From NCBI GenBank assembly GCA_020510985.1, contig CM035843.1, forward strand, positions 157,123,922 to 157,187,921: 64,000 bases of DNA, read 5' to 3'. Source of the DNA: Pholidichthys leucotaenia. Its lineage: Eukaryota. The first letter of the stretch is position 1. Each line of letters opens with the position of its first letter. Below are positions 6,510-62,093 of this stretch, in pieces. The notes beneath the pieces are model-generated. The model searched no databases. It saw nothing but the letters and a program-made list of their open reading frames with translations, and was not told the DNA's origin. The translations under genes were made by a program, and so were the position numbers.

Positions 6510-8123
<1,614 letters not shown>

Positions 8124-12546: not shown

Positions 12547-12549
12547 CTG

Positions 12550-25208: not shown

Positions 25209-25361
25209 ACTTCTGGTTATGGCGGCCACGTAGGAAGACGTGTTTTGCCCTGCTCTGCTCCTAAAGATAAAAAGTCGGCAAATAACTCTCTCATTTGGAA
25301 CAAAGCCTATCCCAGCGTTTGGGCGAGGATATGCCGGTAAAGCCTAAGTCTGGGAAATCAG

Positions 25362-26219
25362 GTGGAGGGAAAAACTGAACCGCCGAAACAGTCCAAGTTA
25401 ACGGACTTTCACGTTCGTGATGGAGCAGAAAAATCTTCAGATATGGCGGAGCAAGCTAGTGGCGGAGCGGTGACTGCTGGCGACGGCACAGGTGCGGTGC
25501 TCGCTGCCATTAGCTCAATGAGAGCAGACTTTTCCGCTAAATTTGATGGGATTATAGCAGCGATAGAAGGAAAGAGAAAGGAAATAAGTGACTGTATGGA
25601 ACGAGTAACGCAGGTGGAGCTCCGAATTTCCAGCGTTGAGGATGACGTCACCAGCCTACAATTAAAGGTGCGCACATTGGAATTAAAAAATAAACGTCTG
25701 GAAGATAATGTCCTGGACTTAGAATCCCGGTCGAGATGGAACAACCTGAGGCTGGTGGGTCTCCCGGAGGGAACCGAGGGTCGGGACCCATGTTCCTTTT
25801 TGGAAAAGTGGATTCCAGAAGCGCTGAACAACGCGGAGCTGCAGTCATCAGTCGTTTTAGAGAGCGCCCATCGAATTGGCCCACCGAGAGATAATAAGGC
25901 ACCACCAAGGACGCTGATTATGAAGTTCCTCAGCTACAGAGACAAGATGACGATCTCCAACGCGGCGCGAGCCAAAGGAGAAATTAAATACCAGGATCAA
26001 CAGGTGCGGTTCTACCCAGATTTGGCCACAGGAATCCAACATTTAAGGAAACAGTTTGACCCCGCCCGTAAAGTGCTGCACAGCCTCGGGACTCCTCATG
26101 GAGTGATTCATCCTGCAAGATTGCTGGTCACATATAAGGGCAGAACTCACACCTTCAAGACCCCTGAGGAGGCGCAGGAGCTCATCAAGCAGATCCAAGA
26201 GGAGACTGGTGGGAGCTAA
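25362..26219 (+). CDS. L1 ORF1p, copy A (coiled coil, RRM, C-terminal domain), 285 aa, uninterrupted
   Basis: 'NNLRLVGLPEGTEGRDPCSFLEKWIPEAL...LESAHRIGPP...PRTLIMKFLSYRDKMTISNAARAKGEIKYQDQQVRFYPDLA...HPARLLVTYKGRTHTFKTPEEAQELIK' is the Transposase_22/L1 ORF1 architecture. Confidence 0.8.
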   Translation: MEGKTEPPKQSKLTDFHVRDGAEKSSDMAEQASGGAVTAGDGTGAVLAAISSMRADFSAKFDGIIAAIEGKRKEISDCMERVTQVELRISSVEDDVTSLQLKVRTLELKNKRLEDNVLDLESRSRWNNLRLVGLPEGTEGRDPCSFLEKWIPEALNNAELQSSVVLESAHRIGPPRDNKAPPRTLIMKFLSYRDKMTISNAARAKGEIKYQDQQVRFYPDLATGIQHLRKQFDPARKVLHSLGTPHGVIHPARLLVTYKGRTHTFKTPEEAQELIKQIQEETGGS

Positions 26220-26656
26220 GCATGAAGCATGAATAAAATATAAGGTAGAATATTTAAGCATTTGCACAGGCATCTGACTGCTCTGAAGCATATAGCAAGT
26301 TTACAAAATATAGATTGTATTATATATTAAAAAAAAACCTATGATGTACAAAGTTGCTATAAAATTTTGGAGTTAAGTTGGAAAAGTACAGAAGAGAGTT
26401 AATGTTACGTCATTAAAAGCAGTAGAGTCAGGGTGATTGAGAGGATAAAGAGGGAGTGGCTTTGGCTGGTCCTCGCGGGTGTGGAGCAGTCAATGGCTAT
26501 AGCGGGAGACAGAATTTTTTTTGATTTTGGGGGGATTACCACAAATGTGGGAAGGGGGAATTTGTTTGTGTGTAGTTTGTAGGATGAATGTTCAACCACT
26601 CATGTTTTTGCTTCTCTGTATGAAAATGTTTACATTGCAAGGTAATCTCAAACTCC

Positions 26657-29600
26657 TTGTTGATCATAGACCAAAGCGTTAATCTTAATTTAACTTCATG
26701 GAATTGCAGAGGTCTACAAAATTTAAAAAAACTTAAACAAGTTATGAATAAAATAAAAGACATAGGTTCAAAAATTGTGTTTTTACAAGAAACTCATCTA
26801 ATAGAGGAGGATGTAAAAAGAATTAGGAGAAGATGGCAAGGAAGTGTATTCACCTCATCATTTTCATCCCGAGCCAGGGAAGTTATGACTCTCATACATA
26901 AATCAATCCCATTTCAAGTGAAAAATGTAATTGGAGACAAATTTGGAAGATATCTAATCATTCAAGGATCTTTGTTATTAGAAAATATAAATCTGGTGAA
27001 CTTATACGGTCCCAATATAGATGATCAAAATTTCTTTGCTAATTTATTTCTTATTTTATCATCACTTACAGGGCAACATATAATAGCAGGGGATTTTAAT
27101 TGTGCATCGAATCCCAGTATAGATAGATCAACAGGACTGGACTGTACGCACAATGGATGCAGGATGATCATTAATCATTTTATGAAAGAATTGAGATTGC
27201 TAGATATATGGAGAGAAATGAAACCACAAGTTAAAACCTACTCTTGTTATTCTAATACCTACAAGACATTCTCACCTATTGACTATTTTTGATCTCCACA
27301 GAATTAAGGTCCAAGATTCAAAACTGCTTCTATGATAATATTGTGATCTCTGATCATGCACCCTGCTGTCTAATCTATGTAGATAAGAAATTGACAAAGG
27401 AACCAGGTAGGTGGCAATTTCAGCATAAATGGCTCAGGATGAGGAATTATGTTAAGTACATAGAAAAACAGATGAGTTTTTTTGATATCAGATACTACAC
27501 AAACATCTGCATGTATAAAGTGGGAGGCTTTCAAAGCTTTAATTGGGGGCCTATTATTAGTTATACAGGTTCAAAATCTAAGAAGACTCGAGAGGGAGAG
27601 AGGTCCAATTGGAACATAAAATCAAAATTCTTCAAGAAAAAGTGTATGCAGGAAGTGACCCAAAGTTAGAGAACGAATTACTGATTCTGAGATCTGAATC
27701 ATGTACAAAAAATCAGCGACTAGAGCTGCCTCGAGTCTTCTAAGATTGAAGCAATCTTTTTATGAACAAGGTGAAAAATCAGGAAAATTATTGGCATGAC
27801 AGATTAAACAATTAGAATTTAAAACACCAATTACCACTATTATAAGTAATGGACAGGCAGTTGTAGATCCTTTAGAAATTAATAGTGCCTTTAGAGATTA
27901 CTATGAAAAATTATATGATACAAAAAAATGAAAACTGACTTAACAAAACTAATGGGTTTTTAGACGGATTATCTATACCGTGAATCCTAATGAAAACAGG
28001 GAGACACTGAGTCTAAAAATTAGTCAAGAAGAAGTTGGGCTAGCCATTGATAATAATGAAATCAGGAAAAAGTGCAGGACCAGATGGTCTTCCAGTTGAC
28101 CTCTATAAAAAATTTAAGAATAAATTAATAAAACCATTTTTGGAAATGGTTTTAGAAGCATTTCAAAATAGTAATTTACCACCATACATGAATAATGCCC
28201 TTAATTATACTGTTGCCAAACAGAGTAAACCCTCTAATAATGTGAAAAATATGAGACCCAGTAAGTCTATTAAATGCTGACCTTAAGATAATCTGTAAAA
28301 TTTTGGCAAGACGACTACAAGAAATATTACCAAATATTATTAACCGAGATCAGAATGGCTTTATAAAGAGGGGTAGCACTGTCCTGGTAAGAAGTTACTT
28401 AAAGAATAGATATCAGTTTGTATGTGTTAAACAACAAAAACTCAGAGCTACTGAAGGTCACCTGTGGAGTCCCCACAGGGTTCAGTTTTGGGACCATTAT
28501 TATTCAATATGTATATAAACTGATATATGTAAAGTTTCAGAAAAATGGACTTAATATTGTTTGCTGATGACACTAACCTGCTATGCAGTGGAAACAACTT
28601 GGAACAACTTTCTGGATACCACTCGGAAAAGGAATTAGGAAAGCTGAAACTGTGGTTTGATTCGAACAAAATAACGCTCAATTTAAGCAAGACAAAATTT
28701 ATAGTCTTTAACAACCATCACAACTACCCAGTACCCCAAACTCAGTGTAAATGGTTGTAGAGATTGAAAGGGTATCCGAAACTAAATTCCTTGGAGTAAT
28801 AATTGATAACAAACTGTGTTGGAAGCCACATATTAATTTATAAAAGGTAAAGTATCCAAATCACTTGCAATATTACACAGAGTGAAAAATTTGCTGAATC
28901 AACCCACACTATACCACCTTGTATCAATCATTAATACTCCCATACATGACATTTTGTAATGAAGTATGGGGAAAACATATAAAAACAAACATATATCCCA
29001 CTCTTTAATGCTTCAAAGAGAGCTATTAGAATAATAAACAAAGCAGCTTACAGGGAACCAACAAACCCACTTTTTCTTAACAAAAAACTCTCAAGTTGAA
29101 AGATCTGATCGACTTTAAAACCGCAATAATAATGTTCAAAGTGAAGAATCTATCACTGCCCGCAAATATCCAAAGTTGTTCCAAACAAGGGAGAAACGAT
29201 ATCACTTCAGAGGAACATGGTATATTTCAAAAGCTACAGTGAGAACAACTACCCACAAGCAACATTGTATTTCAGTGCAAGGTGTTCACGATTATGGAAC
29301 GATTTTGGACCTGAATTAAAATCATGTACAAAGCTTGGACAATTTAAACAAAAACTAAAGGAAGAAATACTCCAAACATATTTACAAGACGACATGTAAA
29401 CTCACATAAGGATTGACATTTCAGCCTGTGTTGTGTTATAGCTTAGTTTTTCTTTTTTCTCTGTGACACTATGTCTTAGATTTGTTTTTGAATAGTAACC
29501 GCTTAACTTAGACTAGCTCAGTTTTCTTTTTCTCTCAGTCATATTTTGTCTTAGCCTTGTTTTAAATTGTAATCGCTCTTGTCTTGTTTTCCTCTTTTTT

Positions 29601-31685
29601 CTCCTTTGAATTCTTGGATGGAATATGGGTGGGCAATATAAGCTGCGGCTTCAGCCATCACCCATTTCGGATAACTCACGTGGAATTGTATAGTAGAAGG
29701 AGTCTTTGTCTAATTTGACCTTGTTGTTATATTATACAGTTTCTTTTAACCTGTAATGTACTATCCGAAATAAATTCATTCATTCATTCATTCATTTCAT
29801 TCATTCATCATAAAGGGAAGACAAGGCTTCCATAATGTAAGAAGACTATTTAATATTATCTATTCTAATAAAGAAGCACCGGATACAGCTCTCCTATCAT
29901 TGGACGCCGAAAAGGCCTTTGATAGGGTCGAATGGCCCTTCCTTTTTGAAGTCTTACAAAGGTTTGGACTTGGAAATAATTTCATAAAATGGGTTCAGAT
30001 AATATACAATAATGCTACAGCAGAAATCCTAACAAACAGCAATATTTCAAAATCAATAAATATCAATAGAGGATGTCGACAAGGCCTGTCCACTTTCACC
30101 TTTACTGTTTACTATGGCAATTGAACCTTTAGCGATGGCAGTACGTTTACATCCACAATTATATGGAATTAAAGTAGGACCAACAGAACATAAAATCTCC
30201 CTGTATGCTGACGACATAATTTTGTTTATGTCGAATCTTAAAAAAATCAATTCCGACCTTGTTGAATTTAATAAAGAATTTTGGGGAAATATCAGGATAT
30301 AAAATAAATAAAACTAAATCTTCAATATTAATGCTAAATGAGACCCAGAGAAATCACCCAGCTCCTGAGGTAAATCAATTCAATGTTGTAAATCAGTTTA
30401 AATATTTAGGAATTCAAATTGTGCCTAAGCTAGAATTAGTCGCCAGTGCCAATTATGAAGCCTTAATGACAGACATTAATGAGTTACTTCAGAGATGGAT
30501 GTCACTACCAATGTCGACGATTGGGAGAATCAATATACTTAAAAGTAATATCTTACCCAAAATACTTTATTCAATACATTCCTTTACCACCACCTTCAGA
30601 TCTATTCTCAAGAATTAAAAAAAAAGTTAGTGGAATTTATATGGAACAATAGGAAGGCTAGATTGCGTCTGTCCTTACTATATTTACCATTTGATCGTGG
30701 AGGTCTGAAATGTCCAAACTTTATGTTGTATTACTGGTCAGCACAACTGAGGTCTATGACATATTATTTTTCATCAAATGATCTCCCTCACTGGACTGAA
30801 ATGGAATCATACAATTTACCTTTACCTCTTCCCATATTCATATACTCAGACTCGGCAAAAAAATTACAGAAACAAGTTAAAAATCCATTTGTAAAGCATA
30901 TGATCAAATATGGGTGTGAAACCGAAAAATATTTATAAGAACCACACTTATTGTCACAATTTAGCCCAATATGGGGTAATCAATATTTTAAACCAGGGAA
31001 AGCGGATGCTGTGTTTAAAGTATGGAATTTAAAAGGGATTCAAAAGATTCAAGAGACTTATATCTGTCATGTTCAATAACATAATGTCTTTTTGAAGAAC
31101 TGAGGATCAAATTTAATCTTAATAGAACACATTTTTTTAAAATATCTTCAGCTTAGGAACTTTAGTCGATCAAATCAAAATAATGCTCTCATCCGACCTA
31201 CTTATTCATCCTTGGAAAAAATTTTGACGAAAGATAGTAAGAGAAAGGGTATTATTTCAGAGTTTTATAACTCAATTGACACTATCCTCAAGTGAAAACT
31301 CACAGAAAAGATTGAATTATTGGAAAGAAGACCTGCAAACTGAAATTTCAGAGGAACAATGGGAATTGGTTTGTACAGAAGCTCAAACCAAATCAATAAA
31401 TGTACGTCTTAAATTGATACATTTTAAATGGTTAATGTGGATATATGTTACACCGGTGGAGTTAAATAGATATAACAAAAACATACCAGATACATGCACA
31501 AAATGTATGGAAAGTAAAGGAACCTTATTTCATTGTTTATGGGAATGTAGAAAAATTAGAATGTTTTGGGAAGAGGTGAGGGTAACAATTGAAAAAATAA
31601 TTTCAAAACAAATCATGTTGAATCCTAAATTGTTTTTGTTGGGTCTGCATCCAGAAAAGCATAACTTTGATAAAAGTGAAAGAGC
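26657..31685 (+). pseudogene. L1 ORF2 of copy A (APE endonuclease plus RT), split by frameshifts and a nested LINE
   Basis: Endonuclease 'LTSWNCRGLQN...VFLQETHL...IAGDFNC...SDHAP' (26657-27400). RT start 'GPDGLPVDLYKKF...[12 protein letters not shown]' (28047-28330). RT resumes at 29813 '[10 protein letters not shown]...[14 protein letters not shown]...YADDIILF'. C-terminal cysteine domain 'CTKCMESKGTLFHCLWECRKIRMFW' (about 31490-31580). Confidence 0.8.
28373..29812 (+). mobile_element. CR1/Rex-like LINE 3' fragment nested inside the L1 copy A RT
   Basis: Splits the L1 RT between 'GFIK' and 'GRQGFHN'. That junction is uninterrupted in copy B (about 34895) and copy C (about 59725). Carries RT '[17 protein letters not shown]', 'ILFADDTNLLCSG', a 3'UTR and an (attc/tcat)n tail at 29776-29810. 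Flanking 'aaag' direct repeat. Confidence 0.75.
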
Positions 31686-34600
31686 GACTTCCGGTTATGG
31701 CTGCCACGTAGGACGGACGTGTCTCGCTCTGCTCTGCTCCTGGAAAAAAAAAAATCGGCAAATAACTCTCTCATTTGGGACAGAACGTATCCCAGCATTT
31801 GGGCGAGGATATGTCGGCGAAGCCTAAGGCTGGAAAACCAGGAAAAGGAAAAAGCGAGCCGCCGAAACAGTCCAAATTAACGGACTTTCAGGTCTGTGAC
31901 GCAGCAAACAAGGCTCCATATATGGCGGAGGAGGCTGGCGGCGGTGCGATTTCTGCGGGGAATGGCGCAGATGCGCTGATGGCTGCCATGAGTTCAATGA
32001 GAGCGGACTTTCCTCTAGATTTGATGGGATTATGACAGCGCTGGAAGGAATAAGAAAGGAATTGGGTGACTGTGTAGAACGAACGGCGCAGATGGAGCTC
32101 CGTCTCGCTTGTGCTGAAGATGACGTCACCCGTCTTCAATTAAAGGTGCGCACTTTGGAAAAAAAAAATAAATCTCTGGAAGATAATATTTTGGATTTGG
32201 AATCTCGGTCGAGACAGAATAATTTGAGGCTGGTGGGTCTTCCAGAGGAATCAGAAGGTCGGGACGTATGTTCCTTTCTGAAAAGTGGATTCCGGAGGTG
32301 CTGGGCAGCGAGGAGTTGCAATCAGCAGTGGTTCTGGAAAAAGCACATCGTATTGGCCCACGGAGAGATAAGGGACCGCCGAGGACCTTAATTATGAAGT
32401 TTCTTAGCAACAGAGACAGGATGAAGATCTTCAACGCTGCACGTGCTAAAGGAGAGATTAAACACCAGGACCAGCAGGTGCGGTTCTACCCAGATTTGGC
32501 CACAGGAATCCAGCAATTGAGGAAGCAGTTTGATCCCATACGTAAGGAGCTGCGCAACCTTGGGATTCGTCATGGTGTAATCTATCCTGCGAGACTGCTG
32601 ACCACGTATGAGGGCAGAACCCACATCTTCAAGACCCCAGAGGAGGCGCAGGAGTTCATCAAGAAGATCAAAGAAGAAGAAGAGACTGGTGGGAGCTAAG
32701 CATGAACAAAATATAAGGTAGAATAATTAAGCATTTGCACAGGCATCTGACTGACTTGAAGTAAATAGTAAGTTTACAAAATATAGATGTATTATATATT
32801 AAAAAAAAACAAAACAAAAACAAAACAAACAAAAAAAAAAACTATGATGTACAAAGTTGTTAAAAATTTAAAAAAAAAACTATGATGTACAAAGTTGTTA
32901 AAAATTTTGGAGTTAAGTTGGAAAACTACAGAGGAGAGTTAATGTTACGTCATTAAAAGCAGTAGAGTTAGGGTGATTGGGGAGGATGAAGAAGGAGTGG
33001 CTTAGGCTGTTCCCCGTGGGTGTGGAACGGTCGATGGCTATATCGGGAGACAGAATTTTTCTTTTGATTTTGGGGGGTTTGCCACAAGTGTGGGAAGGGG
33101 AAATTTGTTTGTGTGTAGTTTGTAGGATGAATGTTCAACCACTCATGTTTTTGCTTCTCTGTATGAGCATGTTTACACTGCAAGGTAATCCCAAACTCTC
33201 TATTGATCATGGACCAAAGTGTTAACCTTAATTTAACTTCATGGAATTGCAGAGGTCTACAAAATTTAAAAAACTTAAACAAGTTATGAATAAAATAAAG
33301 GACATGGGTTCAAGAATTGTGTTTTTACAAGAAACTCATCTGATAGAGGAGGATGTTAAAAGAATTAGGAGTAGATGGCAGGGAAGTGTATTCACCTCTT
33401 CATTTCATCCCGAGCCAGGGGAGTTATGACTCTCATACATAAATCAGTTCCTTTTCAAGTGAAAAATGTAATTGGAGACAAATTTGGAAGATATGTAATC
33501 ATTCAAGGTTCTTTGCTATTAGAAATATAAATCTTGTGAACTTATATGGTCCCAATATAGATGATCAGAAGTTCTTTGCTAATTTATTTCTCATCTTATC
33601 ATCACTTACAGGGCAACATATAATAGCAGGGGATTTAATTGTACATTGAATCCAGGTGTGGATAGATCAACAGGACTGGATTGTACGCACATTGGATGTA
33701 GGATGACTATTAATCATTTATGAAAGAATTGAGATTGTTAGATATATGGAGAGAAATGAAACCACAAGTTAAAGCCTATCTTGTTATTCCAGTACCTACA
33801 AGACATTCTCACGTATTGATTATTTTTTGATTTCCACAGAATTAAGGTCCAAGATTCAAAACTGCTTTTATGATAACATCGTGATCTCTGATCATGCACC
33901 CTGTTGTCTATATATGTAAGATAAAAAATTGACAAAGGAATCAGGTAGATGGCAATTTCAGCATAAATGGCTTCAGGATGAGGAATTTGTCAAGTATATA
34001 GAAAAACAGATAGACGAGTTCTTTGACATCAATACTACACAAACATCAGCATGTGTAAAGTGGGAGGCTTTCAAAGCTTTTATTAGGGGACATATTATTA
34101 GTTATACAGGATCAAAATCTAAGAAGACTCGAGAGGAGAGAGCTAAATTGGAACATAAAATAAAAAATCTTCAGGAAAAAGTGTATGCAGGAAGTGACCC
34201 AAGGTTGGAGAATGAATTACTGATTTTGAGAGCTGAATACGACAAAAAATCAGCGAATAGAGCTGGCCTCGAGTCTTCTAAGATTGAAACAATCTTTTTA
34301 TGAAACAAGGTGAAAAATCAGGAAAATTAATAGCATGGCAGATTTAAAACAATTGGAAATTAATACACCAATTACCAGTAGTATAAGTATGGACAGTAGT
34401 TATAGATCCTTTAGAAATTAATAGAGCCTTTAGAGATTACTATGAAAAATTATATGATACCAAAAATGAACTGATTTAACAAAACTAAATGGGTTTTGAA
34501 CGAACTATCTATACGTGTATTCCAACTGAAAACAGGGAGATATTGGAGTCTAAAATTAGTCAAGAAGAAGTTGGGCTAGCCATTGATAATAGAAATCAGA

Positions 34601-37220
34601 AAAAGTGCAGGACCAGATGGTCTTCCAGTTGACCTTTATAAAAAATTTAAGAATAAATTAATAAAAACCTTTTTTGGAAATGGTTTTAGAAGCATTTCAA
34701 AATAATAATTTACCATCATACAGAAATAATGCCTTAATTATACTGCTGCCAAAAACCAGGTAAGCCCTCTAATAAATGTGAAAATATGAGACCAATAAGC
34801 CTATTAAACGCCGACCTTAAGATAATCTGTAAAATTTTAGCAAGACGAATACAAAAATTTTACCAAATATTATTAATCGAGATCAGAATGGCTTTATAAA
34901 GGGTAGACAAGGCTTCCATAATGTAGAAGACTATTTAACTATATTTATTTTAATAAAGAAGCACCGGATACAGCTCTCCTATCATCGGGATGCCGAAAAG
35001 GCCTTTGATAGAGTTGAATGGCCCTTTCTTTGAAGTCTACAAGGTTTGGACTTGGAAATAATTTCATAAAATGGGTTCAAATACTATACAATAATGCTAC
35101 AGCAGAAATCCTAACAAATAACAATATTTCAAAACAATAAAAATCATAGAGGATGTCGACAAGGCTGTCAACTTTCACCTTTACTGTTTACTATGGCAAT
35201 TGAACCTTAGCGATAGCGATACGTTTACATTCACAAATATAGGAATTAAAGTTGACCAACAGAACATAAAATCTCCCTGTACGCCGATGACATTAATTTT
35301 GTTTATGTCGAATCTAAAAAAATCAATTCCAACCTTGTTGAATTTAATAAAGAATTTTGGGGAAATATCAGGATATAAAATAAATAAAACTAAATCTTCA
35401 ATATTAATGCTAAATGAGACCCAGAGAAATTACCCAGCCCTGAGGTAAATCAATTCAATGTTGTAAATCAGTTTAAATATTTAGGAATCCAAATTATGCC
35501 TAAGCTAGACTCAGTCGCCAGTGTCACTATGAAGCCTTAATGTCAGATATCAAGAGTTAACTCAGAGATGGATGTCACTACCAATGTCGATGATCGGGAG
35601 AATCAATATACTTAAAAGTAATATTTTACCTAAAATACTTTATTTATTTCAATACATTCCCTTATCACCACCCTTAGATCTATTCTCAAGAATAAAAAAA
35701 GTTAGTGGAATTTATATGGAACAACAGGAGGGCTAGATACGTTTGTCTTTATTATATTTACCATTTGATCGTGGAGGTCTGAAATGTCCAAATTTTATGT
35801 TGTATTATTGGTCGGCACAACTGAGGTCTATGACATATTATTTTTCATCAAATGATCTCCCTCACTGGACTGAAATGGAATCATACAATTTACCTTTACC
35901 TCTTCCCATATTCATATACTCAGATTCGGCAAAAAAATTACAAAAACAAGTTAAAAATCCATTTGTAAAGCCTATGATCAAAATATGGTGTGAAGCTAAA
36001 AACTATTTAAAAGAACCACAGTTATTGTCACAATTTAGTCCAATATGGGGTAACTCAATATTTTAAACCAGGGAGAGCGGACGCTGTATTTAAAGTATGG
36101 AATTTAAAAGGGATACAAAAGATTCAGGATTTAATTGCCATGTGCAGACAACATAATGTCTTTTGAAGAGCTGAGGATCAAATTTAATCTCAATAGAACA
36201 CATTTTTTTAAATATCTTCAACTTAGAAACTTTATTCGATCAAATCAAAATAAAGCTCTCACTCGACCTATTTATTCATCCTTGGAAAAAATGATGATGA
36301 AAGATAGTAAAGAAAGGGTATTATTTCAGAGTTTTATAACTCACTGACACTATCTTCAAGTGAAAATTCACTGAAAAGATTAAACTACTGGAAAGAAGAT
36401 CTGCAAATTGAAATTTCAGAGGAACAATGGGAATTGGCTTGTACAGAAGCTCAAACCAAATCAATAAATGCAACGCCTTAAATTGATACATTTCAAATGG
36501 TTAATGACGGATGTATGTTACACCGGAGGAGTTAAATAGATATAACAAAAATATACCAGATACATGCACAAAATGCATGGAAAGTAAAGGAACCCTATTT
36601 CATTGTTTATGGGAATGTAGATTAATAAGAATGTTTTGGGAAGAGGTGAGGGTAACAATTGAAAAATAATCTCAAAACAAATCATATGAATCCTAAACTG
36701 TTTTTGTTGGGTCTGTACCCAGAAAAGCATAATTTAATAAAAGTGAAAGAACATTCATAGACCTCAGTTTGCTTAATGCCAAAAAATGTATTGCACTATT
36801 ATGGAAAAAGACTCATAGACCAGATGTGACTCAGTGGTTAAGACAGATGTTAACAAAACCTTCCATTAGAAAGAATAACATATATACTAAAATCAAAGGA
36901 AATTGTGTTTGAGAATATATGGAGACCTTTTATTGATTATGTAAAAAATTAAACATAACCCTCTGAAGAAGAAGGTGAATGATGTGTGTGGACCTTGTAA
37001 ATTCAAACTGGTGAACATAATATGTATACTTATGTATTGGATTGTCTAACCTAAACAGAGGAGCCATTGTTGAAGACTTGACTTTGTTGAGTGGTTGTTG
37101 GTGTTTTTAGTGCATTTTTTTTTTTTATTTGTAGTACTTTAGTGTTAGTGTTTGATTGTTTGTATCATGTTTGTTTAAAAAAAAAAAAAAGGTTCAATAA
37201 AGATATGTGGAAAAAAAAAA
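31686..37220 (+). mobile_element. L1-clade LINE copy B, full length but decayed, nested in the 3' region of copy A
   Basis: 10-bp target-site duplication 'gtgaaagagc' at 31676-31685 and 37221-37230. 5' start 'gacttccggttatggctgcc'. Poly-A at 37185-37220. ORF1 (31775-32699) has 2 frameshifts; ORF2 (33241-about 36960) is in many fragments. Confidence 0.8.
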
Positions 37221-39660: not shown

Positions 39661-40140
39661 AATCTTCTGTCTTTAAATACCCTTTCTCTTCTCATTGCGC
39701 GATTTGCAATATCGTCTAATAATGCTAATGTGGGCGACACACATTGTGGGCTCACGTTTCCACAGAGACAGGACTGCATGTGTATTGAGGGTGTCACGTC
39801 TGCAAGGACAAAGAACTCGAATCCGCAGAAGATAACAAGGAGGTGTGAGATTTGTCTCTTTGTCCCACAGAAGATGCCCCGGAGAGATTTCCGGTTCATC
39901 AGGAAATGAGAGACAATGGTGAAGATTCAAAGGGATGCTTTGTGACTGTATGTTTACTGAAAACACCATGTGACTTGAATTCTGATGCTGGAAACATATA
40001 AAAGGGTGATGAGATATGATTCTTTCTCTTTCCTGCTTTGAGAATGCTAGAAGCTGTGTTCTGTCAATAAAGCTGGTTTACGACTAAACTCAGCCTCATC
40101 ATTTGAGCACATCTTCTACACTGGTGACCTACGACGAGAA

Positions 40141-40905
40141 ATGAGCAGACAGAATTCTCCCGAGCAGGGCTCGGCGGAAGCCAGCCTGATGGCCGCCTCC
40201 ACGATCCGGCTGCCTGATTTCTGGCAGCACAGCCCGCGCTCATGGTTTAGCGCAGTCGAGGCGCAGTTCAACCTCCGGAGAATCTCCAACGACGACACAA
40301 GATTCTACCATGTGGTAGCGAAGCTGGACAGCAACACGGTCTAGAGAGTGGAGGATCTGGTTAATCATCCACCAGACAGCGACAAGTACAGCGCATTGAA
40401 GGACGCGCTGATCAGCCATTTCACCCCTTCAGTCCAACAACGAGCAGAGGGACTCCTGACGTTGACGGAGTCAGAAAATGATAGACCTGCGGACCTGATG
40501 GTGAAGATGCTGAAGCTCAAAGACTCTGAAGATGGCGAATTCATTTTCGCCCACCTTTTCCTTCGTACCCTGCCGCCAGCAGTGAGAGTGGCCCTGGCAG
40601 AGTCGCCCCGATTGGCCAGGCGAGACTACCATGGGTTGAGCAAAGAGGCGCAGCGGTTGGTCGACGCCCACAAGCGGAACGCAGTTTCGGCCGCGGCGGC
40701 TAGCCCAGGAACGTCATCCGGAGACAGTGCAGGTCCAGCGGCCGCGGCGCCAGACGCACCAAGGACGGCGGCGACGGGAGCCAGACGACGCGGAGCGGAG
40801 GACGGCCCGTGCTTCTACCACCGCCGTTTTGCAGAGAGAGCGCACAGGTGCGTGTCACCGTGCAACTTTAAGCGCCAGGGAAACGCCAAGACCGAGGGCC
40901 GGTAG
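40141..40905 (+). pseudogene. gag of copy 2, interrupted by an in-frame stop and a frameshift before the protease
   Basis: 'LPDFWQHSPRSWFSAVEAQFNLRRI' then stop at 40345, then 'EDLVNHPPDSDKYSAL...CFYHRRFAERAHRCVSPC', then stop at 40903. Protease 'DTGSQ' lies in another frame. Confidence 0.75.
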
Positions 40906-40976
40906 CAGCTGCGACCCTCGGCAACGAGAACAGGCTGCTTTACCTGACGGATGCACGCTCGGGGAAACAGTTCCTC

Positions 40977-43900
40977 GTGGACACGGGCTCTCAGCTGAGT
41001 TTCGTCACACTCACCTACGCGGAATGGCTGATGCCTTCTAAAGCTCCCTGGGTGTCAGTGTCAGCAGCGAACGGCTCCACGATTAAAACGTTCGGTGAGA
41101 GGACCATGCTTCTGTCCTTACAGGGCCGTTCATTTGAGTGGACATTTATTGTAGCAGCAGTCAGTTTCAACATGTTAGGGGCTGATTTTTTGTGCTCACA
41201 TGGTTTATTGGTTGACCTTGCTAATAGACGTCTGATTAATGCACTGTCCTTTCATTCTATTCCCTGCACAGCTCGGGTGGCCCCGCCGACTGCACATGCC
41301 AGCGTCTCAGCTGCGGGTGGTAAGTTTCACACATTGCTTGCTCAGTTCCCAGCACTCACAGTCCCCACGTTTTCGGCAACGGTGGCTAAACATGGGGTGG
41401 AGCATTTCATAACAACCACCGGCCCCCCCGTTTTTGCAAAAGCTCGGCGCTTGGACCCAGCTAAACTGGCCATCGCGCGCGAGGAGTTCACTAATCTGGA
41501 AAAACTGGGCATTGTTAGACGCTCCAAGAGCTCTTGGGCTTCGCCGTTACACATGGTCCCAAAGGCTGACGGCTCGTGGCGACCTTGCGGCGATTTCCGC
41601 AGGTTGAACAACGTTTCAGCTCATGACCGCTACCCGATTCCGCACATTCAGGATTTTTCTGTTCATTTGGCGGGGGCGCGCATTTTTTCTAAAATAGACT
41701 TGGTGCGCGGTTACCACCAGGTTCCAGTGCGCGCGCAAGATGTACCCAAAACAGCGGTCATAACTCCTTTCGGCCTTTTTGAGTTTTTGCGCATGCCTTT
41801 TGGCCTCAAGGGGGCCGCGCAGACTTTCCAACGCATGATGGATGCAGTTTTACGCGATCTTCCTTTCGTGTTCGTTTATTTGGACGATATTTTGGTAGCC
41901 AGCACGTCTGAGGCCGAGCACGAAAAGCACCTCACAGCAGTTTTTCGGAGGCTGGCAGAGCACGGGTTAATAGTTAACCCAGCGAAGTGCCAGTTTGGGG
42001 TGGCGCAGATTGATTTTTTGGGACATCGCGTTTCGGCAGAAGGAGCGGTTCCTCTTCCAAATAAAGTGCGTGCCATAACGGATTTTCCGCAACCTCAAAC
42101 GGTCAAGGCGCTGCGGGAGTTTCTAGGGATGGTTAATTTTTACAACCGGTTCCTCCCAAGTGCAGCACGGCTCATGCAGCCATTGTACACCGCGTTAAAA
42201 AAACAAAAGCCCGCAAATAAAGTTGAATGGTCTCCGGAGCGGGAGCGCGCTTTTGCCCAGGTCAAATCGGCCCTGGCAAACGCAGTTTTGTTAGCGCACC
42301 CAGTTCCAACGGCCCGCATGGCGCTCACCACTGACGCTTCCGATGTAGCGGTGGGGGCGGTAGTTGAACAGTTTGTGGCAGGTACCTGGCAACTCCTCGC
42401 GTTTTTCAGCAGGACTTTGCGCGATAGTGAGCGTAAATACAGTGCGTTTGACAGGGAGCTTTTGGCCCTACACTTGGCCATCCGTCATTTTCAGTTCTGG
42501 TTAGAGGGGCGACGTTTCACCGCGTTTGTGGATCATAAACCGCTAACTTTTGCGATGGCCAAAATTTCAGAACCCTGGTCAGGCCGACAACAAAGGCAAC
42601 TAGCCGCAATATTGGAGTTCACTACTGATATTCAGCATGTCGCGGGTAAACACAATGTTGTAGCAGACTGCCTCTCGCGCGCGGTAGCACCACCAACCCC
42701 CGTAGGGGCAGACTCTGTAGCCGTGGCTGCGGGCCCGGGCAGCGACGCGGGAGCGCGCGCAGCCCCGGTCTGTGTTGGGTTAGATTATGCAGCCATGGCT
42801 GCGGAGCAGGTTAACGACGCGGACGTGCGCGCGCTCCAGTCTGGACCAACAGGGTTAAGGCTGGAGCACAGGGAGCAACAAAGTGGTATGCCCCCACTAA
42901 TCTGCGATGTCTCCATGGGACGGCCCCGCCCCGTGGTGCCAGCCGCGTGGCGTCGCCGCGTTTTTGACTTGGTCCATTCTCTCGCGCACCCGGGGGTGCG
43001 CGCATCGATTAAGTTGGTGGGGGAGAAATTTGTTTGGCCCAGGTTGCGCAAACAGGTCAAGGAATGGGCGGCAGCCTGCGTAGCGTGTCAGCGAGCCAAA
43101 ATACACAGACACACTAAGGCCCCGTTGGAACCTTTTCACATCCCCGCTAAGCGTTTTGATCACGTGCATGTTGACTTGGTGGGCCTGCTCCCATTATCAC
43201 ACGGGCACACACATCTTTTGACGATGGTGGATCGCACCACGCGTTGGCCAGAGGCGATTCCTCTGACATCAACCACAGCGGAAGAAGTTGCGCGAGCATT
43301 TTTAGCAGCATGGGTTGCGCGTTTCGGTGTACCGTCGGACATAATGTCCGACAGGGGTCCCCAATTTATTTCCGAACTATGGTCATCGATGGCCCGCAGC
43401 TTGGGGGTGAAGATTCATCGCACTACCGCGTATAACCCCCAGGCTAATGGTTTATGCGAACGCTTTCACAGGTCATTGAAAGCAGCCCTCAGAGCGTCGC
43501 TGACGGATACAAATTGGGTGGACAAACTTCCATGGGTTTTATTGGGGTTGCGTTCTGCACCTAAGGAAGATTTGCATGCTTCCCCGGCTGAATTAGTTTT
43601 TGCACAACCTGTCCGTTTGCCGGGGGAATTTCTCCCCGATAATCCCGCACCAAATGGCCCCCCCGCTCAGCCGTGGCAGAGCGACTCGGGAGCAAACACG
43701 CTCCCTGGCCCGGTCCATCACAGTTTACCACACGTTTTTGTGCCAAAGGCTTTAAAAAATGCGGAGTTTATTTTTGTTAAACATGATGCTCAGCGTCCAA
43801 GTTTGCGACCGTTTTATGACGGACCGTTCCGAGTGCTGGAGACCGGGCAGAAGCATTTTCTGCTAGATTTAGGGGGCAGAAGGGAGTTGATTTGCATAAA

Positions 43901-44114
43901 CAGGCTCAAACCCGCCTTTGTTTTGGCTGACGAGGAAGTGCAGCTCGCGAGGCCCCCCCGCCGTGGCAGGCCGCCGAGAAGACATTCTCCAAAATCTTCA
44001 CAGAAAGGTGCTAACAGCTTTAATCCACAGGCGCATAGAGATGTTGCAGGTGCAGCCAAGCCAGGCTGCAGCAGATTCGGCAGAAAGTTAAAACCTAGGC
44101 AGTTGGTGGATTGA
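40977..44114 (+). CDS. pol polyprotein of copy 2 (protease, RT, RNase H, integrase), 1045 aa, uninterrupted
   Basis: Protease 'MDTGSQLSF'. RT 'PFVFVYLDDILVAS'. RNase H 'TTDASDVAVGAVVEQ'. Integrase 'HSLAHPG...CVACQRAK...DLVGLLP...DRGPQFISELW...AYNPQANGLCERFH'. Confidence 0.85.
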   Translation: MDTGSQLSFVTLTYAEWLMPSKAPWVSVSAANGSTIKTFGERTMLLSLQGRSFEWTFIVAAVSFNMLGADFLCSHGLLVDLANRRLINALSFHSIPCTARVAPPTAHASVSAAGGKFHTLLAQFPALTVPTFSATVAKHGVEHFITTTGPPVFAKARRLDPAKLAIAREEFTNLEKLGIVRRSKSSWASPLHMVPKADGSWRPCGDFRRLNNVSAHDRYPIPHIQDFSVHLAGARIFSKIDLVRGYHQVPVRAQDVPKTAVITPFGLFEFLRMPFGLKGAAQTFQRMMDAVLRDLPFVFVYLDDILVASTSEAEHEKHLTAVFRRLAEHGLIVNPAKCQFGVAQIDFLGHRVSAEGAVPLPNKVRAITDFPQPQTVKALREFLGMVNFYNRFLPSAARLMQPLYTALKKQKPANKVEWSPERERAFAQVKSALANAVLLAHPVPTARMALTTDASDVAVGAVVEQFVAGTWQLLAFFSRTLRDSERKYSAFDRELLALHLAIRHFQFWLEGRRFTAFVDHKPLTFAMAKISEPWSGRQQRQLAAILEFTTDIQHVAGKHNVVADCLSRAVAPPTPVGADSVAVAAGPGSDAGARAAPVCVGLDYAAMAAEQVNDADVRALQSGPTGLRLEHREQQSGMPPLICDVSMGRPRPVVPAAWRRRVFDLVHSLAHPGVRASIKLVGEKFVWPRLRKQVKEWAAACVACQRAKIHRHTKAPLEPFHIPAKRFDHVHVDLVGLLPLSHGHTHLLTMVDRTTRWPEAIPLTSTTAEEVARAFLAAWVARFGVPSDIMSDRGPQFISELWSSMARSLGVKIHRTTAYNPQANGLCERFHRSLKAALRASLTDTNWVDKLPWVLLGLRSAPKEDLHASPAELVFAQPVRLPGEFLPDNPAPNGPPAQPWQSDSGANTLPGPVHHSLPHVFVPKALKNAEFIFVKHDAQRPSLRPFYDGPFRVLETGQKHFLLDLGGRRELICINRLKPAFVLADEEVQLARPPRRGRPPRRHSPKSSQKGANSFNPQAHRDVAGAAKPGCSRFGRKLKPRQLVD

Positions 44115-44896
44115 TTAGCGATGTATGGAGTGTTTTGTGTTTTTCTTTTTTCTATGCCGTGCAGGTCTTGCCCTTACTAGACGTTTGGGGGGGGGTAGTG
44201 TGGGCGACACACATTGTGGGCTCACGTTTCCACAGAGACGGGACTGCATGTGTATTGAGGGTGTCACGTCTGCAAGGACAAAGAACTCGAATCCGCAGAA
44301 GATAACAAGGAGGTGTGAGATTTGTCTCTTTGTCCCACAGAAGATGCCCCGGAGAGATTTCCGGTTCATCAGGAAATGAGAGACAATGGTGAAGATTCAA
44401 AGGGATGCTTTGTGACTGTATGTTTACTGAAAACACCATGTGACTTGAATTCTGATGCTGGAAACATATAAAAGGGTGATGAGATATGATTCTTTCTCTT
44501 TCCTGCTTTGAGAATGCTAGAAGCTGTGTTCTGTCAATAAAGCTGGTTTACGACTAAACTCAGCCTCATCATTTGAGCACATCTTCTACACTAACGCCAT
44601 TATTATTATTAGAGACATTTTCTGCACTTCTTTGCACTTGCTTTTATAGCCACTCATCTAATTGCACACACTTGGATGTTTGTTTATCATGTGTCTCTGG
44701 TTTGTGCAATCATTTTCATGTCATTATCAGTCTCCCAACATCACCTCTAAGTGTCGTCAGTGGACCAATAACAGTAGAAACGTACGTACACCAGCCATGA
44801 AGTTGACGTGCAGCTGCGCATATTTCCATGGTCATTTCATTCTTGACACATCTGAAATTTTCCGTGGAAAAGGACATATGCCATATTTTTGTGCGT

Positions 44897-44934: not shown

Positions 44935-47432
44935 GGTTGGTCACTATCAGAATCAATGAATACTCTAAAAATGATCTGGCAAAACAGAATTGGGAAGAAC
45001 TATATAATGAAGAAGACACAAACAAAGCATATGAAATATTTTTATGAATATTTAAATTTTTGTGTGATTAAAAAAAATGTCTAATTATATAAAAAAAATC
45101 AATAAGCAAAAACATTCAGACAGTCCATGGGTACCTAAAGGATTAAAAAATGCCTGCAAAAAGAAAAATACGTTGCATAGAGAATTCATAAGACATAGAA
45201 CTAAGGAAGTAGAAAATAGATATAAAAATAAGTTAACCAATATTATGAAAATAAGTAAAAAGGAATACTATAGTAAATTAATAGATAATAAAAATAATAT
45301 TAAAGGTTTATGGAATGTGTTAAAGTAATTCCAAATGGAGACAGACAAGATAATTATCCTTAATTATTATATAGATAATTATATAAATATTAATAGTATA
45401 AATGATGCAGTAAATAGATTCAATGAATTCTTTGTAAATATTTGACCAAAATTAGCAGAAAGATTCCCTGATCCATTCATATCTGAAAAGGGGAAAAGTA
45501 AATTAATCGAAAGAAATCCAAATTCAGTATTTTTTACAGCAGTGGAAGAGAGGGAAATCATTGAGATTGTACATAAATTCAGAAATAAAGTTTCAACTGA
45601 CTGTGATGACATTGACATGGTAACTGTTAAAAAAAAGTTATTGAGGAGATTGCTAAACCACTGAAACACATTTGCAGTTTACTATTTTCAAACTGGTACA
45701 ATTCCAAGTAAAATGAAAATAGCTGAATGAAAAGTCATACCTCTATACAAAACTGGAAACAAACACCACTTCACAAACTACAGGCCCGTTTCTCTTCTGC
45801 CCCAATTTTCAAAAATACTGGAAAAACTCTTTAATGTCAGATTAGACAAGTTTGTAGCTAAATACAGTTTACTTACAGACTGTCAGTATGGATTTAGAAC
45901 CAACCACTCTACAAGAAATTATTAATTCTATGGACAGAAAGAAATTTGCAGTGGGAGTGTTTGATTTGAAAAAAAAAGCATTTGATACATTAAATCATGA
46001 AATACTGATTAATAAATTGGAACGATATGGACTCAGGGGAGTGGTATTGAATTCAGTCAGAACCTATTTTAAAAAAAACAGGCAATAATTTGTGAAGATG
46101 GGACAATATAAATCTGAGAGTTTGGACATTGTTTGTGGTGCCCTCCAGTGGTCAGTGTTGGGACCTAAACTTTTTATTTTATGTATCAATGATATTTGCA
46201 ATATTTCTGAACTGTTGAAGATTGTGATATTTGCAGATGACACAACTGTTCTGGGTACTGGTGAGGATCTACAGCAACTTTTGAATATAATCACTACCAA
46301 ATTCAGTAAAATAAAAGAATGGTTAAATAAAAATAAATTATCATTAAATTGAGCAAAACAAAGTTCATGTTATTTGGAAATAGTAAGGCAAATATTCAAG
46401 CAAAAATACAGATGGATGACATCAACGCTGAAAGAGTTCAAGACAATAAATTTCTAGGTGTGATTATAGATGAAAAAATTTGCTGGAAACCTCACAATAA
46501 ATACGTACAAGCTAAACTGTCCAGAAGTATTTCGGTCATGAGCAGAACAAAGCACATACCGGATCAGAAATCACTCCATACTTTGTATTGTTCACTTGTT
46601 TTACCATATTTAAATTGTTGTTCAGAAGTTTGGGGAAATGCATATAAAAGTTCATTACAGCCGCTTGTTATTTTACAAAAAAAGAGCAATAAGAATCATT
46701 CATGGTGCCGGTTTTCCTGATCACACAAATTATTTATTTTTACAGTCTAAAAGTTTGAAATTCTTTGATCTGGTGGAATATAAAACTGCCATAATAATGT
46801 ACAAAATAAGGAAGAATTCATAGCCAGTTAACATCCAAAACATGTTTGTTGAAAGACAAAAGGGATATCATTTAAGGGGGGAGTTGCTTCTAAAGACAGT
46901 GGGTGTACGAACAACTAGGAGAAGCTTTTGTGTTTCGATCTGTGGGGTTAAATTATGGAATTGATTAAATATGGAGTTAAAACGATGTCCAAACATTCTG
47001 AGTTTAAAAAAAAAAGTATAAAAATGAGAAATTAAATACAGGGAGGAAGATGGTTCAGTTAATCATTAGGGTTGGTTGGGTGAAAGTCTGTGAGAGTCAC
47101 TAGTGGATTGTTGATCAGTAGAAAGTTGTTTACTTGTTTCATTTTTGAATTTCTATATTTTAATAAGTAATAAGCTCTTGGAATGCATGTAGAGATTTGT
47201 TTATTCACATTCTTGCTCATTAAGTTTTCATTTGTTGTTATTGCTATGTATGTACAGTATGTGAATATGAGCAAGCAGGTATATTAATTAGTTAAGTATG
47301 GGACAGGACAAGATAAGCTTTTGGCTTCAGTCTTGTTCCTTTTCGGGCTGCATTTGGATTTTTTATTTTTATTCTTGTTTTTGTTTTGTCTCATTTGAAA
47401 TAAATGGTATCTATCAATCAATCAGTCAATGG
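44935..47432 (+). mobile_element. CR1/Rex-like LINE, 5'-truncated and decayed
   Basis: Pre-RT segment 45077-45328 is homologous to 17400-17665. RT 'FAVGVFDLKKKAFDTLNHEILINKLERYGL', '[18 protein letters not shown]', 'IFADDTTVLG'. C-terminal 'IIDEKICWKPH...LYCSLVLPYLNCCSEVWG'. (tcaa)n tail at about 47410-47432. Confidence 0.75.
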
Positions 47433-54924: not shown

Positions 54925-56567
54925 CAGTGCATCTGAAAGTATTCACAGCACTTCAATTTTTCCACATTTATGTTACAGCCTTATTCCAAAATGGATGAAA
55001 TTCTTTTTTTTCCTTCAAAATTCGACTCACAACACCCCATAATGACAATGTGAAAAAAGTTCTTTTGAGATTTTTTTTCAAATTTTATTAAAAATGGAAA
55101 AAAAAAAAAGAAATCACATGCGCATAAGTTAATTCAGTCGTTTTCCATGAAACTCAGAACTGAGGCGGCCAGGCGCACTCTGTTTCCACTGATCATCGCT
55201 TGAGATGTTTCGACAGCTTAATGGGGAGTCCACCTGTGGGTAAATTCAGTTGATTGGACTTGATTTGTAGAAAGGTACATACCTGGCTATATAAGGTCCC
55301 AAGTTGACATGCATGTCAGAGCACAAACCAAGCATGAAGTCAAAGGAACTGTCTGTCAACCTCTGAGACAGGATTGTCTTGAGGCACAAATCTGGGGAAG
55401 GGTACAGAAAAATTTCTGCTGCTTTGAAGGTCCCAATGAGCACAGTGGCCTCCATCATCTGTTAATGGAAGAAGTTCAGAACCACCAGGACTCTTCCTAG
55501 AGCTGGCCAGCCATCTAAACTGAGCGATCGGGGGAGAAGGGCCTTAGTCAGGGAGGTCACCAAGAACCCGATGGTCACTCTGTCAGAGCTCCAGTGTTCT
55601 TCTGTGGAAAGAGGAGAACCTTCCAGATGGACACCCATCTCTCCAGTAATCCTCATCAATCAGGTCTATATGGTAGAGTGGCCAGTGGGAAGCCACTCCT
55701 TAGTAAAAGGCACATAGCAGCCCACCTGGAGTTTGCCAAAAGGCATCTGAAGGACTCTCAGACCATGAGAAACAAAATCCTCTGGTCTGATGAGACAAAG
55801 ATTGAACTGTTTGGCGTGAATGCCAGACATCATGATTGGAGGAAAACCAGGCACCGTTCATTACAGGCCAATGCCATCCCTACAGTGAAGCATGGTGGTG
55901 GCAGCATCATGCTGTGGGGATGTTTTTCAGTGGCAGGAACTGGGAAACTAGTCAGGATAGAGGGAAAGATGAATGCAGCAATGTACAGAGACATCCTGCA
56001 TGAAAATCTGCTCCAGAGCGCTCTTGACCTCAGACTGGGGTGATGGCTCATCTTTCAGCAGGACAACGACCCTAAGCACCCAGCCAAGATATCAAAGGAG
56101 TGGCTTCAGGACAACTCTGTGAATGTTCTTGAGTGGCCCAGCCAGAGTCCAGACTTGAATCCAATTGAACATCTCTGGAGAGATCTGAAAATGCCTGTGC
56201 GCTGACGCTTCCCATCCAATCTGATGGAGCTTGAGAGGTGCTGCAAAGAGGAATGGGCAAAACTGCCCAAAGATACACTACCATTCAAAAGTTTGGGGTC
56301 ACTTAGAAATTTCCTTATTTTTGAAAGAAAAACACTTTTTTTCACTGAAGATAACTTTAAACTAATCAGAAATACACTCTATACATTGCTAATGCGGTAA
56401 ATGACTATTCTAGCTGCAAATGTCTGGTTTTTGGTGCAATATCTACATAGGTGTATAGAGGCCCATTTCCAGCAACTATCACTCCAGTGTTCTAATGGTA
56501 CAATGTGTTTGCTCATTGCATCAGAAGGCTAATGGATGATTAGAAAACCCTTGTGCAGGGCTTCCAG
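54925..56567 (+). mobile_element. Tc1-family transposon relic, third family, 5' part; interrupted by L1 copy C
   Basis: 5' terminal inverted repeat 'cagtgcatctgaaagtattcacagc' at 54925. Transposase fragments '[13 protein letters not shown]...[13 protein letters not shown]...[17 protein letters not shown]...FQQDNDPKH...[15 protein letters not shown]' (55594-56230) with an internal stop. Confidence 0.75.
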
Positions 56568-62077: not shown

Positions 62078-62093
62078 AGAAAACCCTTGTGCA

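Follow-up and report, generated by a model that had tools for sequence, protein, structure and literature searches.

A near-intact Ty3/Gypsy retrotransposon with a nonsense codon in gag and a predicted −1 frameshift site, and its sister-subfamily neighbour in Pholidichthys leucotaenia

Can two damaged retrotransposons that lie within 30 kb of each other supply one another with the proteins each of them lacks? The question is raised by a 64,000-nucleotide stretch of Pholidichthys leucotaenia DNA (assembly GCA_020510985.1, contig CM035843.1, positions 157,123,922 to 157,187,921), hereafter called the window, from whose first letter all coordinates are counted. It contains two long terminal repeat (LTR) retrotransposons, copy 1 (12133-17019) and copy 2 (39729-44590). 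In the initial annotation these were described as members of one LTR family with reciprocal defects, copy 2 combining an intact pol with a gag broken by a stop and a frameshift and copy 1 showing the opposite, and trans-complementation between the two was considered conceivable. Here, we propose with good confidence that copy 2 is a complete, very recently inserted Ty3/Gypsy element (Metaviridae-type, non-chromodomain) that is otherwise intact bar one nonsense change in gag. This degree of confidence applies to the reading as a whole, i.e. to a young Gypsy element of a fish type that is naturally expressed by frameshifting, carries a single stop in gag and is an independent neighbour of copy 1.

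Anatomy of copy 2 and its gag/pol junction

A blastn self-comparison revealed two direct repeats (39726-40122 and 44196-44592), which, trimmed to their TG...CA ends, are LTRs of 392 bp each that differ at one aligned position (391/392 identical). Self-comparison, TG...CA ends and a target site duplication (TSD) CTAA confirm the boundaries 39729-44590 and the LTR length given initially as exact. Near-identical direct repeats with TG...CA ends and a TSD, a primer binding site (PBS) at the 5' LTR and a polypurine tract (PPT) at the 3' LTR give copy 2 the structure of an LTR retrotransposon. Its features, including the open reading frames (ORFs) for Gag and for protease (PR), reverse transcriptase (RT), RNase H and integrase (IN), are the following:

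39725-39728, plus strand: left TSD CTAA; the same 4 nt stand at 44591-44594, directly flanking the TG...CA ends of the LTRs
39729-40120, plus strand: 5' LTR, 392 bp, TGTGGG...TCTACA, with a TATA-like ATATAAA and an AATAAA signal (blastn self-comparison, alignment)
40122-40137, plus strand: PBS TGGTGACCTACGACGA, beginning with TGG 1 nt past the 5' LTR end; also present in copy 1 bar a 1-nt indel
40141-40905, plus strand: gag ORF, DUF7041-type, 254 codons and TAG, with one premature TAG inside (three-frame translation)
40342-40344, plus strand: premature TAG, gag codon 68 (CAG in copy 1)
40872-44114, plus strand: pol reading frame PR-RT-RNaseH-IN, 1080 codons and stop, uninterrupted, without an initiation codon of its own
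40878-40884, plus strand: slippery heptamer G_GGA_AAC in the gag zero frame (read from the sequence; same frame and position in relatives)
40892-40921, plus strand: GC-rich hairpin, stem CCGAGGG / CCCTCGG, whose loop contains the gag stop; candidate stimulator of frameshifting (RNA fold)
44187-44195, plus strand: PPT of nine G, ending 3 nt short of the 3' LTR; copy 1 has the same G-run ahead of its own 3' LTR
44199-44590, plus strand: 3' LTR (blastn, alignment)
44591-44594, plus strand: right TSD CTAA

The PBS stretch after the 5' LTR opens with TGGTGACC; a tRNA scan and an Rfam scan of the window gave zero matches, i.e. the window holds no tRNA gene to pair with it.

The complete protease-RT-RNaseH-integrase ORF of 1045 amino acids claimed for copy 2 is present at 40977-44114, with all domains found. 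An N-terminal DTG is followed by the Pfam families RVT_1 (residues 194-352), RT_RNaseH_2/RT_RNaseH (RT_RNaseH_2 at 418-515), Integrase_H2C2 (654-709) and rve (726-821), which is the PR-RT-RNaseH-IN order of Ty3/Gypsy elements with the integrase downstream of the RT. The Pfam scan yielded no Chromo family at E<=0.01 and copy 2 is hence not assigned to the chromoviruses. The GTG at 40977, the apparent start of this ORF, is a Val codon just ahead of the protease DTG and not a real start. Copy 2 keeps the catalytic motifs DTG (nt 40974), YLDD (41871), RNase H D/E/D (42324/42441/42522), integrase HHCC (42975/43077) and integrase D,D,E (43161/43341/43446), all in columns that are 96-100% conserved in 51 relatives; the inactivated YxDD or integrase DDE that the initial annotation had named as a finding that would speak against it is thus not seen. 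The protease region of copy 2 also contains an in-frame 6-nt tandem duplication (GTGTCA GTGTCA, at 41052-41057), which adds two residues compared to copy 1.

Homologues of this Pol are numerous (4556 at E<=1e-20), and the best named matches come from teleosts, namely Doryrhamphus, Synchiropus, Entelurus, Oryzias, Takifugu and Oreochromis, with 60-71% amino acid identity across 94-100% of copy 2 Pol. These Ty3/Gypsy elements, listed under names such as 'uncharacterized protein K02A2.6-like' and 'Gypsy retrotransposon integrase-like protein 1', share domains and domain order with copy 2 (DUF7041 gag, PR, RVT_1, RT_RNaseH_2, Integrase_H2C2, rve) as well as the gag/−1/pol junction with slippery heptamer and hairpin; compared to them, copy 2 has a private-looking nonsense codon and copy 1 is devoid of the frameshift cassette. 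Judged from these matches, the family is widespread in teleost fishes. No protein relative in the searched collections is more than 71% identical to copy 2 Pol and an exact-protein look-up of the 1045-amino-acid ORF returned no record, which places the copy 2 subfamily, or its host, outside these collections as far as protein sequences tell. Many family members occur in 'marine' or 'freshwater metagenome' assemblies, presumably as fish DNA in the samples. One of them, the ENA marine metagenome contig L001 (7132 bp), carries a gag-pol and, approximately 320 nt past the first pol stop, a second gag-pol, either because two tandem elements have one LTR in common or because the assembly ran on through the LTR.

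Is the change of reading frame between gag and pol a defect? The gag of copy 2 starts with the ATG at 40141 in frame 1 and ends with the TAG at 40903-40905; from 40872 onwards, the pol frame (frame 0, shifted by −1 from that of gag) is open. The resulting overlap of 34 nt (40872-40905) holds caG GGA AAC with the heptamer at 40878-40884, i.e. X_XXY_YYZ read in gag phase; two codons upstream of the heptamer, the −1 frame becomes open, the gag stop follows six codons downstream and the hairpin (40892-40921) begins after a 7-nt spacer 3' of the heptamer. Few heptamers provoke slippage of eukaryotic ribosomes as readily as G_GGA_AAC, the site at which the Gypsy-derived gene PEG10 shifts frame (PMC5009743, PMC2800197). 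Heptamer, phase, TAG and hairpin are likewise shared by L001-L003, three related contigs that were fetched via their Pol proteins. Scanning metagenome contigs provided 77 related loci, which were filtered together with the L001-L003 loci and copy 2 for a gag frame open upstream, a stop within <=15 codons and a −1 frame open for >=250 codons. The filter was passed by 44 distinct junctions (copy 2 and 43 relatives), all of which have an in-phase heptamer: GGGAAAC in 26 cases (25 relatives and copy 2), AAAAAAC in eight and GGAAAAC in ten. A hairpin of −19 to −35 kcal/mol follows the heptamer in 42 of the 43 relatives, each of which was folded singly, compared to averages of −7 to −16 kcal/mol for control windows of the same loci. 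The stem sequences vary among relatives; in an ungapped alignment of 13 sequences with the helix set by hand, 74.6% of the cells pair in register against 29-51% when the helix is slid, and five of the ten pairs show changes on both sides. RNAalifold did not recover the hairpin from these 13 junctions, since their stems are out of line by 1-3 nt when aligned without gaps.

Copy 2 thus has the sequence signature of a −1 frameshift signal, an in-phase heptamer within the overlap followed by a downstream structure that is conserved with covariation. Since the heptamer-hairpin layout is conserved at the 43 related junctions, the frame change is, on this comparative evidence, an ancestral expression strategy and not a lesion, and the 'frameshift' initially counted against the gag of copy 2 appears to be the natural gag/pol boundary. 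Gag would be translated from the genomic RNA of a copy 2-type element, and a minority of ribosomes would slip by −1 on G_GGA_AAC, assisted by the hairpin, and read on into PR-RT-RNaseH-IN to yield Gag-Pol; the predicted mode of expression is the canonical, retrovirus-like strategy. PEG10 and sushi-ichi-type Ty3/Gypsy elements resemble copy 2 in that the same slippery heptamer lies in the gag (RF1) frame ahead of a structured stimulator, and a protease motif comes soon after the shift site (PMC2800197, PMC5009743). However, PEG10 is a mammalian gene, domesticated and immobile, whose stimulator is a pseudoknot and whose Gag is a different one, whereas copy 2 has a stimulator predicted only as a hairpin, a DUF7041-type Gag, LTRs and a full pol. 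Ten of the 44 junctions (L009, L015, L016, L018, L026, L031, L046, L057, L060 and L067) have G_GAA_AAC instead of the canonical X_XXY_YYZ; in these relatives, the gag stop comes immediately next (AAC TAG/TAA), followed by a strong hairpin, and G_GAA_AAC may be a non-canonical shift site.

The nonsense codon in the gag of copy 2

The only clear inactivating lesion of copy 2 is the TAG at gag codon 68, a single C>T change of the CAG found in copy 1 (CAG>TAG), and the stop reported for this gag is hence real. A further 1-nt difference at 40130 is located in the PBS/leader, outside gag. Gag is 78% identical between the two copies at the amino acid level, and Pfam DUF7041 is detected with 3e-22 in the gag orthologue of copy 1 and with 1.6e-3 in the gag fragment of copy 2. 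Because pol should be reachable only by ribosomes that translate gag and then slip at 40878-40884, the codon-68 TAG would be polar on pol, so that neither Gag nor Gag-Pol is likely to be made from copy 2. The next in-frame Met after the stop is gag codon 120 (nt 40498), and the DUF7041 core spans residues 30-112 in the copy 1 orthologue; reinitiation after an ORF of 68 codons would be inefficient and its product would be devoid of the DUF7041 core. Copy 2 would thus be dead as a protein donor, yet, since its LTR ends, PBS and PPT are intact, it would stay a competent substrate for proteins of other, intact family members.

When did the stop arise? At an LTR divergence of 1/392, approximately five substitutions would be expected in the 4.1-kb interior since insertion, one of which could plausibly be a chance nonsense change; the codon-68 TAG thus most likely arose after insertion. 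The CpG observed/expected (o/e) ratio is 0.90 in copy 2 compared to 0.42-0.52 in its flanks. Both Gypsy copies have 53% GC and a CpG o/e of 0.81-0.90, while their surroundings have 32-41% GC and a CpG o/e of 0.42-0.52, a strong compositional contrast that is consistent with very young insertions.

Several points weigh against this reading of copy 2. The 83-nt region downstream of its heptamer folds no better than shuffles overall (z = −0.5) and a 55-nt fold prefers a structure other than the hairpin; support for the hairpin in copy 2 therefore comes mainly from its position and from the relatives. Low-level reinitiation at gag Met120 or readthrough of the stop could give some Pol. The probable timing of the nonsense mutation is read from a single genomic copy. 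Transcription and the efficiency of frameshifting are, like frameshifting itself, the polarity of the stop and its origin after insertion, what we infer from the sequence, whereas the anatomy, the intact motifs, the conserved frameshift cassette and the LTR homology with copy 1 are observed.

Copy 1 and the question of complementation

Copy 1 is located 27.6 kb upstream and comprises the following features:

12129-12132 and 17020-17023, plus strand: TSD CCCT
12133-17019, plus strand: copy 1, sister subfamily, with 414-bp LTRs at 12133-12546 and 16606-17019
12550-13992, plus strand: Gag-PR-(RT N-terminus) fusion ORF, 480 amino acids, also delimited as 12568-13992, with a 35-bp deletion at 13303/13304
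13970-15975, plus strand: RT-RNaseH-IN segment with 31 frameshifting indels of 1-2 nt (frameshift-aware protein-to-DNA alignment, frame trajectory)

Aligning the internal regions of the two copies, a check proposed in the initial annotation, gave 81.7% identity over 4001 aligned positions, in line with the 80-85% stated there and with a single family. Under the 80-80-80 rule, the internal region (81.7%, 4001 positions) reaches the threshold while the LTRs (66.7%) do not; on sequence, the copies are thus of the same family by internal domain and of distinct subfamilies by LTR. Apart from the two copies, no further fragments of the family were found within the window. The LTRs had been called unrelated, from which LTR swapping or recombination between subfamilies was suggested. 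We found them to be homologous from end to end, with 256 of 384 aligned positions identical (66.7%) in a four-way alignment and with blastn alignments of 69-73% identity in both halves. Shared blocks are spread over the full length, i.e. the TGTGGG start, GGTGTGAGATTTG, GAGAGATTTCC, a duplicated CATGTGACTGTA, ATATAAA, TTTCCTGCTTTGA, AATAAAGCTG and the ...ACA end, and an AATAAA block is also common to the LTRs of both copies; the difference in length (392 versus 414 bp) is chiefly due to one 25-nt indel. Since LTRs evolve faster than coding sequence, diverged homologous LTRs are what is expected of sister subfamilies and no swap needs to be invoked.

A segmental duplication as the origin of both copies was rejected, as the TSDs differ (CTAA, CCCT), the flanks are unrelated except for one 230-nt dispersed repeat, the interiors are 18% diverged and the LTR pairs are >99.5% identical (412/414 without gaps in copy 1). 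By these sequence comparisons, the copies are independent insertions of sister subfamilies, and copy 1 would neighbour copy 2 by chance in a region rich in transposable elements (TEs) and not as part of a complementing pair. The repeat of approximately 230 nt, 86% identical between 17437-17663 and 44949-45174, is found 360-420 nt past the end of each copy, oriented alike both times, and is probably a dispersed short interspersed (SINE-like) or miniature inverted-repeat (MITE-like) element.

The gag of copy 1 is open, as claimed initially, and its pol is fragmented; what had been taken for an intact gag is, however, a Gag-PR fusion. The 35 bp deleted in copy 1 correspond to 40877-40911 of copy 2, i.e. 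heptamer, gag stop and 5' hairpin arm, and their loss brings gag in frame with pol. Seven relatives with fused Gag-Pol all retain the junction peptide ...(G)N/K..R..VAAV..G...LLF; the deletion in copy 1 is therefore regarded as derived, and copy 1 is, as far as its sequence tells, not a normal Gag donor. The relatives P0004 and P0009 are single-ORF gag-pol fusions that have kept the junction peptide, so that the family seems to have dispensed with the need for frameshifting more than once.

The damage to the pol of copy 1 has an unusual pattern. In a frameshift-aware alignment of copy 2 Pol with the DNA of copy 1, we counted 33 frameshifts (22 insertions, 11 deletions), 31 of which are located within 13970-15975, a patch that begins where RVT_1 starts and stops where the integrase core ends. 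In-frame stops are absent from this patch (two are present in the C-terminal tail) and the frame-corrected translation closely resembles copy 2. The ratio of nonsynonymous to synonymous substitution rates (dN/dS) between the copies is 0.116 in the patch, compared to 0.19 in gag and 0.19 in PR. In a relative-rate test with 24 outgroup Pols, 36 amino acid changes in the patch were unique to copy 1 and 19 to copy 2, while the flanking parts were balanced (PR 10 versus 10, tail 12 versus 12); replacements at conserved sites numbered 23 in copy 1 and nine in copy 2. On the copy 1 branch, frameshifts are about as frequent as extra substitutions (indel:substitution ratio ~0.8-1.4), which is 4-10x the ratio of 0.10-0.25 obtained from three decaying L1 copies of the window (67 singleton indels and 467 singleton substitutions in a three-way global alignment).

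Neutral decay of this pol after insertion was rejected, as the LTRs differ at 2/414 positions and pol has 33 frameshifts, and long-term neutral decay before insertion is disfavoured by the dN/dS of 0.116, the zero nonsense codons in the segment and the 4-10x higher ratio than in L1. Indel noise of the assembly across the window, which blastn gap counts between the L1 copies had hinted at, was rejected since L1 ratios are ordinary and several long ORFs are clean; any artefact must thus be local. It is entirely possible, if not quite probable, that such a local artefact of assembly or consensus accounts for most of the damage, i.e. that a patch of approximately 2 kb (13970-15975) contains uncorrected indels of 1-2 nt, that the pol of copy 1 is essentially intact and that there is therefore no reciprocity at all. 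This would fit 31 frameshifts in 2.0 kb without a nonsense codon after frame correction, a dN/dS below the gag value, a surplus of only ~17 amino acid changes in copy 1 over copy 2, the excess of insertions over deletions (22:11), the indel:substitution ratio and the gap-free LTRs, by which the lesions are no post-insertion decay. On the other hand, an error patch would need sharply local limits, because the LTRs and the 1.4-kb gag-PR of copy 1 itself are clean, as are the 3.2-kb pol of copy 2, a 1059-amino-acid ORF2 of a long interspersed nuclear element (LINE) and a 349-amino-acid Tc1 transposase nearby; the position of its borders, at the onset of RT and the close of the IN core, would also fit a selective maintenance of Gag-PR only, and the 23 versus nine replacements at conserved sites suggest some real relaxation of constraint. 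Could copy 1 then be a genuine semi-autonomous Gag-PR element of a vertebrate? Deletion of the cassette would have made Gag-PR constitutive, selection would keep this ORF, RT-RNaseH-IN would decay with frameshift errors like those of a reverse transcriptase, and RT and IN of autonomous relatives resembling copy 2 would mobilise the element. We consider this doubtful. If true, the copy 1 type would be an animal counterpart of the wheat Sabrina/WHAM-Wilma cooperative, in which Sabrina_SA and WHAM, coding for GAG-Pro alone, are believed to depend on Wilma for their mobilisation (PMC9744471). Like these GAG-Pro-only Gypsy elements of wheat and barley (RLG_Sabrina_SA, RLG_WHAM), copy 1 as assembled has an open Gag-PR (1.4 kb) and non-functional RT, RNase H and IN (PMC9744471). 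The cereal elements differ in that RT and IN sequences are entirely absent and thousands of copies exist, whereas the RT-IN sequence of copy 1 is almost complete and well conserved, its only damage being small frameshifts, which may stem from the assembly.

But do copy 1 and copy 2 form a functional unit, in which copy 1 provides Gag and copy 2 PR-RT-RNaseH-IN? The reciprocity noted initially holds at the level of ORFs, as there is one open pol with all motifs (copy 2) and, as assembled, one open Gag-PR (copy 1); both elements are young (LTR pairs 99.5% identical in copy 1 and 99.7% in copy 2), they have the PBS and the LTR termini TGTGGG...ACA in common, and in cereals, LTR elements with gag only and others with a defective gag are documented to share the work between them (PMC9744471). 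It does not hold at the level of expression, however. The pol of copy 2 is devoid of a start codon, depends on frameshifting and lies behind the codon-68 stop, so that it is probably untranslated, and copy 1 without the frameshift cassette would yield only a fusion of Gag, PR and truncated RT and no free Gag. Cross-recognition would have to operate at only 78% identity in Gag and 67% in the LTRs, proximity has no mechanistic role for proteins acting in the cytoplasm, and intact family members elsewhere in the genome would be a far simpler source of proteins. Given the presumably polar stop, the fusion ORF and these simpler donors, a functional two-copy trans-complementation is unlikely, and we would be greatly surprised to find it. 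The idea would not be new in kind, even if true: the gag-defective BARE2 of barley uses the Gag of BARE1 (PMC9744471), and Tos17 is without gag (PMC3977881). With this precedent in mind, copy 2 might belong to a propagating lineage of the BARE2 type, gag-defective and pol-intact, in which the TAG predates the insertion, is common to many copies and is compensated by Gag from autonomous relatives. The disrupted gag next to an intact pol with all cis elements and the very young insertion would agree with such a lineage, as BARE2 likewise has a disrupted gag, otherwise intact genes and a need for Gag in trans (PMC9744471). BARE2 is, however, a Copia element forming a high-copy lineage with a common defect, whereas copy 2 is a single copy with a single substitution, whose gag stop would be polar on pol by its frameshift-dependent design. 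At the observed LTR divergence, decay after insertion would be expected to leave just such a lone substitution in an element without other flaws. As the stop would also remove Pol, no selection would hold 1080 codons open in a lineage of this kind, and yet pol is open throughout and conserved. We thus regard membership in a BARE2-type lineage as improbable and favour a young element that acquired its stop after insertion.

Annotation value and genomic surroundings

Copy 2 is a case of routine TE annotation within a known fish family and of low novelty, and the current understanding of LTR retrotransposons is unchanged by these results; a literature search on DUF7041 found nothing. For annotation, copy 2 provides a precise, near-intact reference for one fish Gypsy subfamily, in which the LTRs, PBS and PPT are mapped along with gag, pol and the frameshift cassette, and the gag/pol frame change of this family must not be counted as a defect. 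The cassette of heptamer and hairpin at 43 related junctions is a clean comparative case of −1 frameshifting in Gypsy elements of animals. The odd frameshift-only damage of copy 1 is a useful flag for the quality of the local assembly and, if real, hints at vertebrate semi-autonomous elements that encode only Gag-PR.

The window is otherwise typical TE-rich, fish-like DNA with a Tc1/Sleeping-Beauty-like transposase, a LINE with an esterase ORF1 and L1-like copies:

6855-7904, plus strand: uninterrupted ORF of 349 amino acids for a Tc1/Sleeping-Beauty-like transposase (HTH_SB, HTH_Tnp_Tc3_2, DDE_3)
19290-23163, minus strand: apparently full-length LINE with a 251-amino-acid ORF1 containing a GDSL-lipase/esterase domain, overlapping an uninterrupted ORF2 of 1059 amino acids (endonuclease-RT)
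23859-24479, minus strand: ORF resembling a degraded Tc1-like transposase, judged by eye
25206-31685, 31688-37219 and 56557-62078: three L1-like LINE copies, 87-94% identical, two of them in tandem

Each L1-like copy has an ORF1 with coiled-coil/Transposase_22 and, in pieces, an ORF2 with APE-type endonuclease and RT. The LINE at 19290-23163 is possibly still active.

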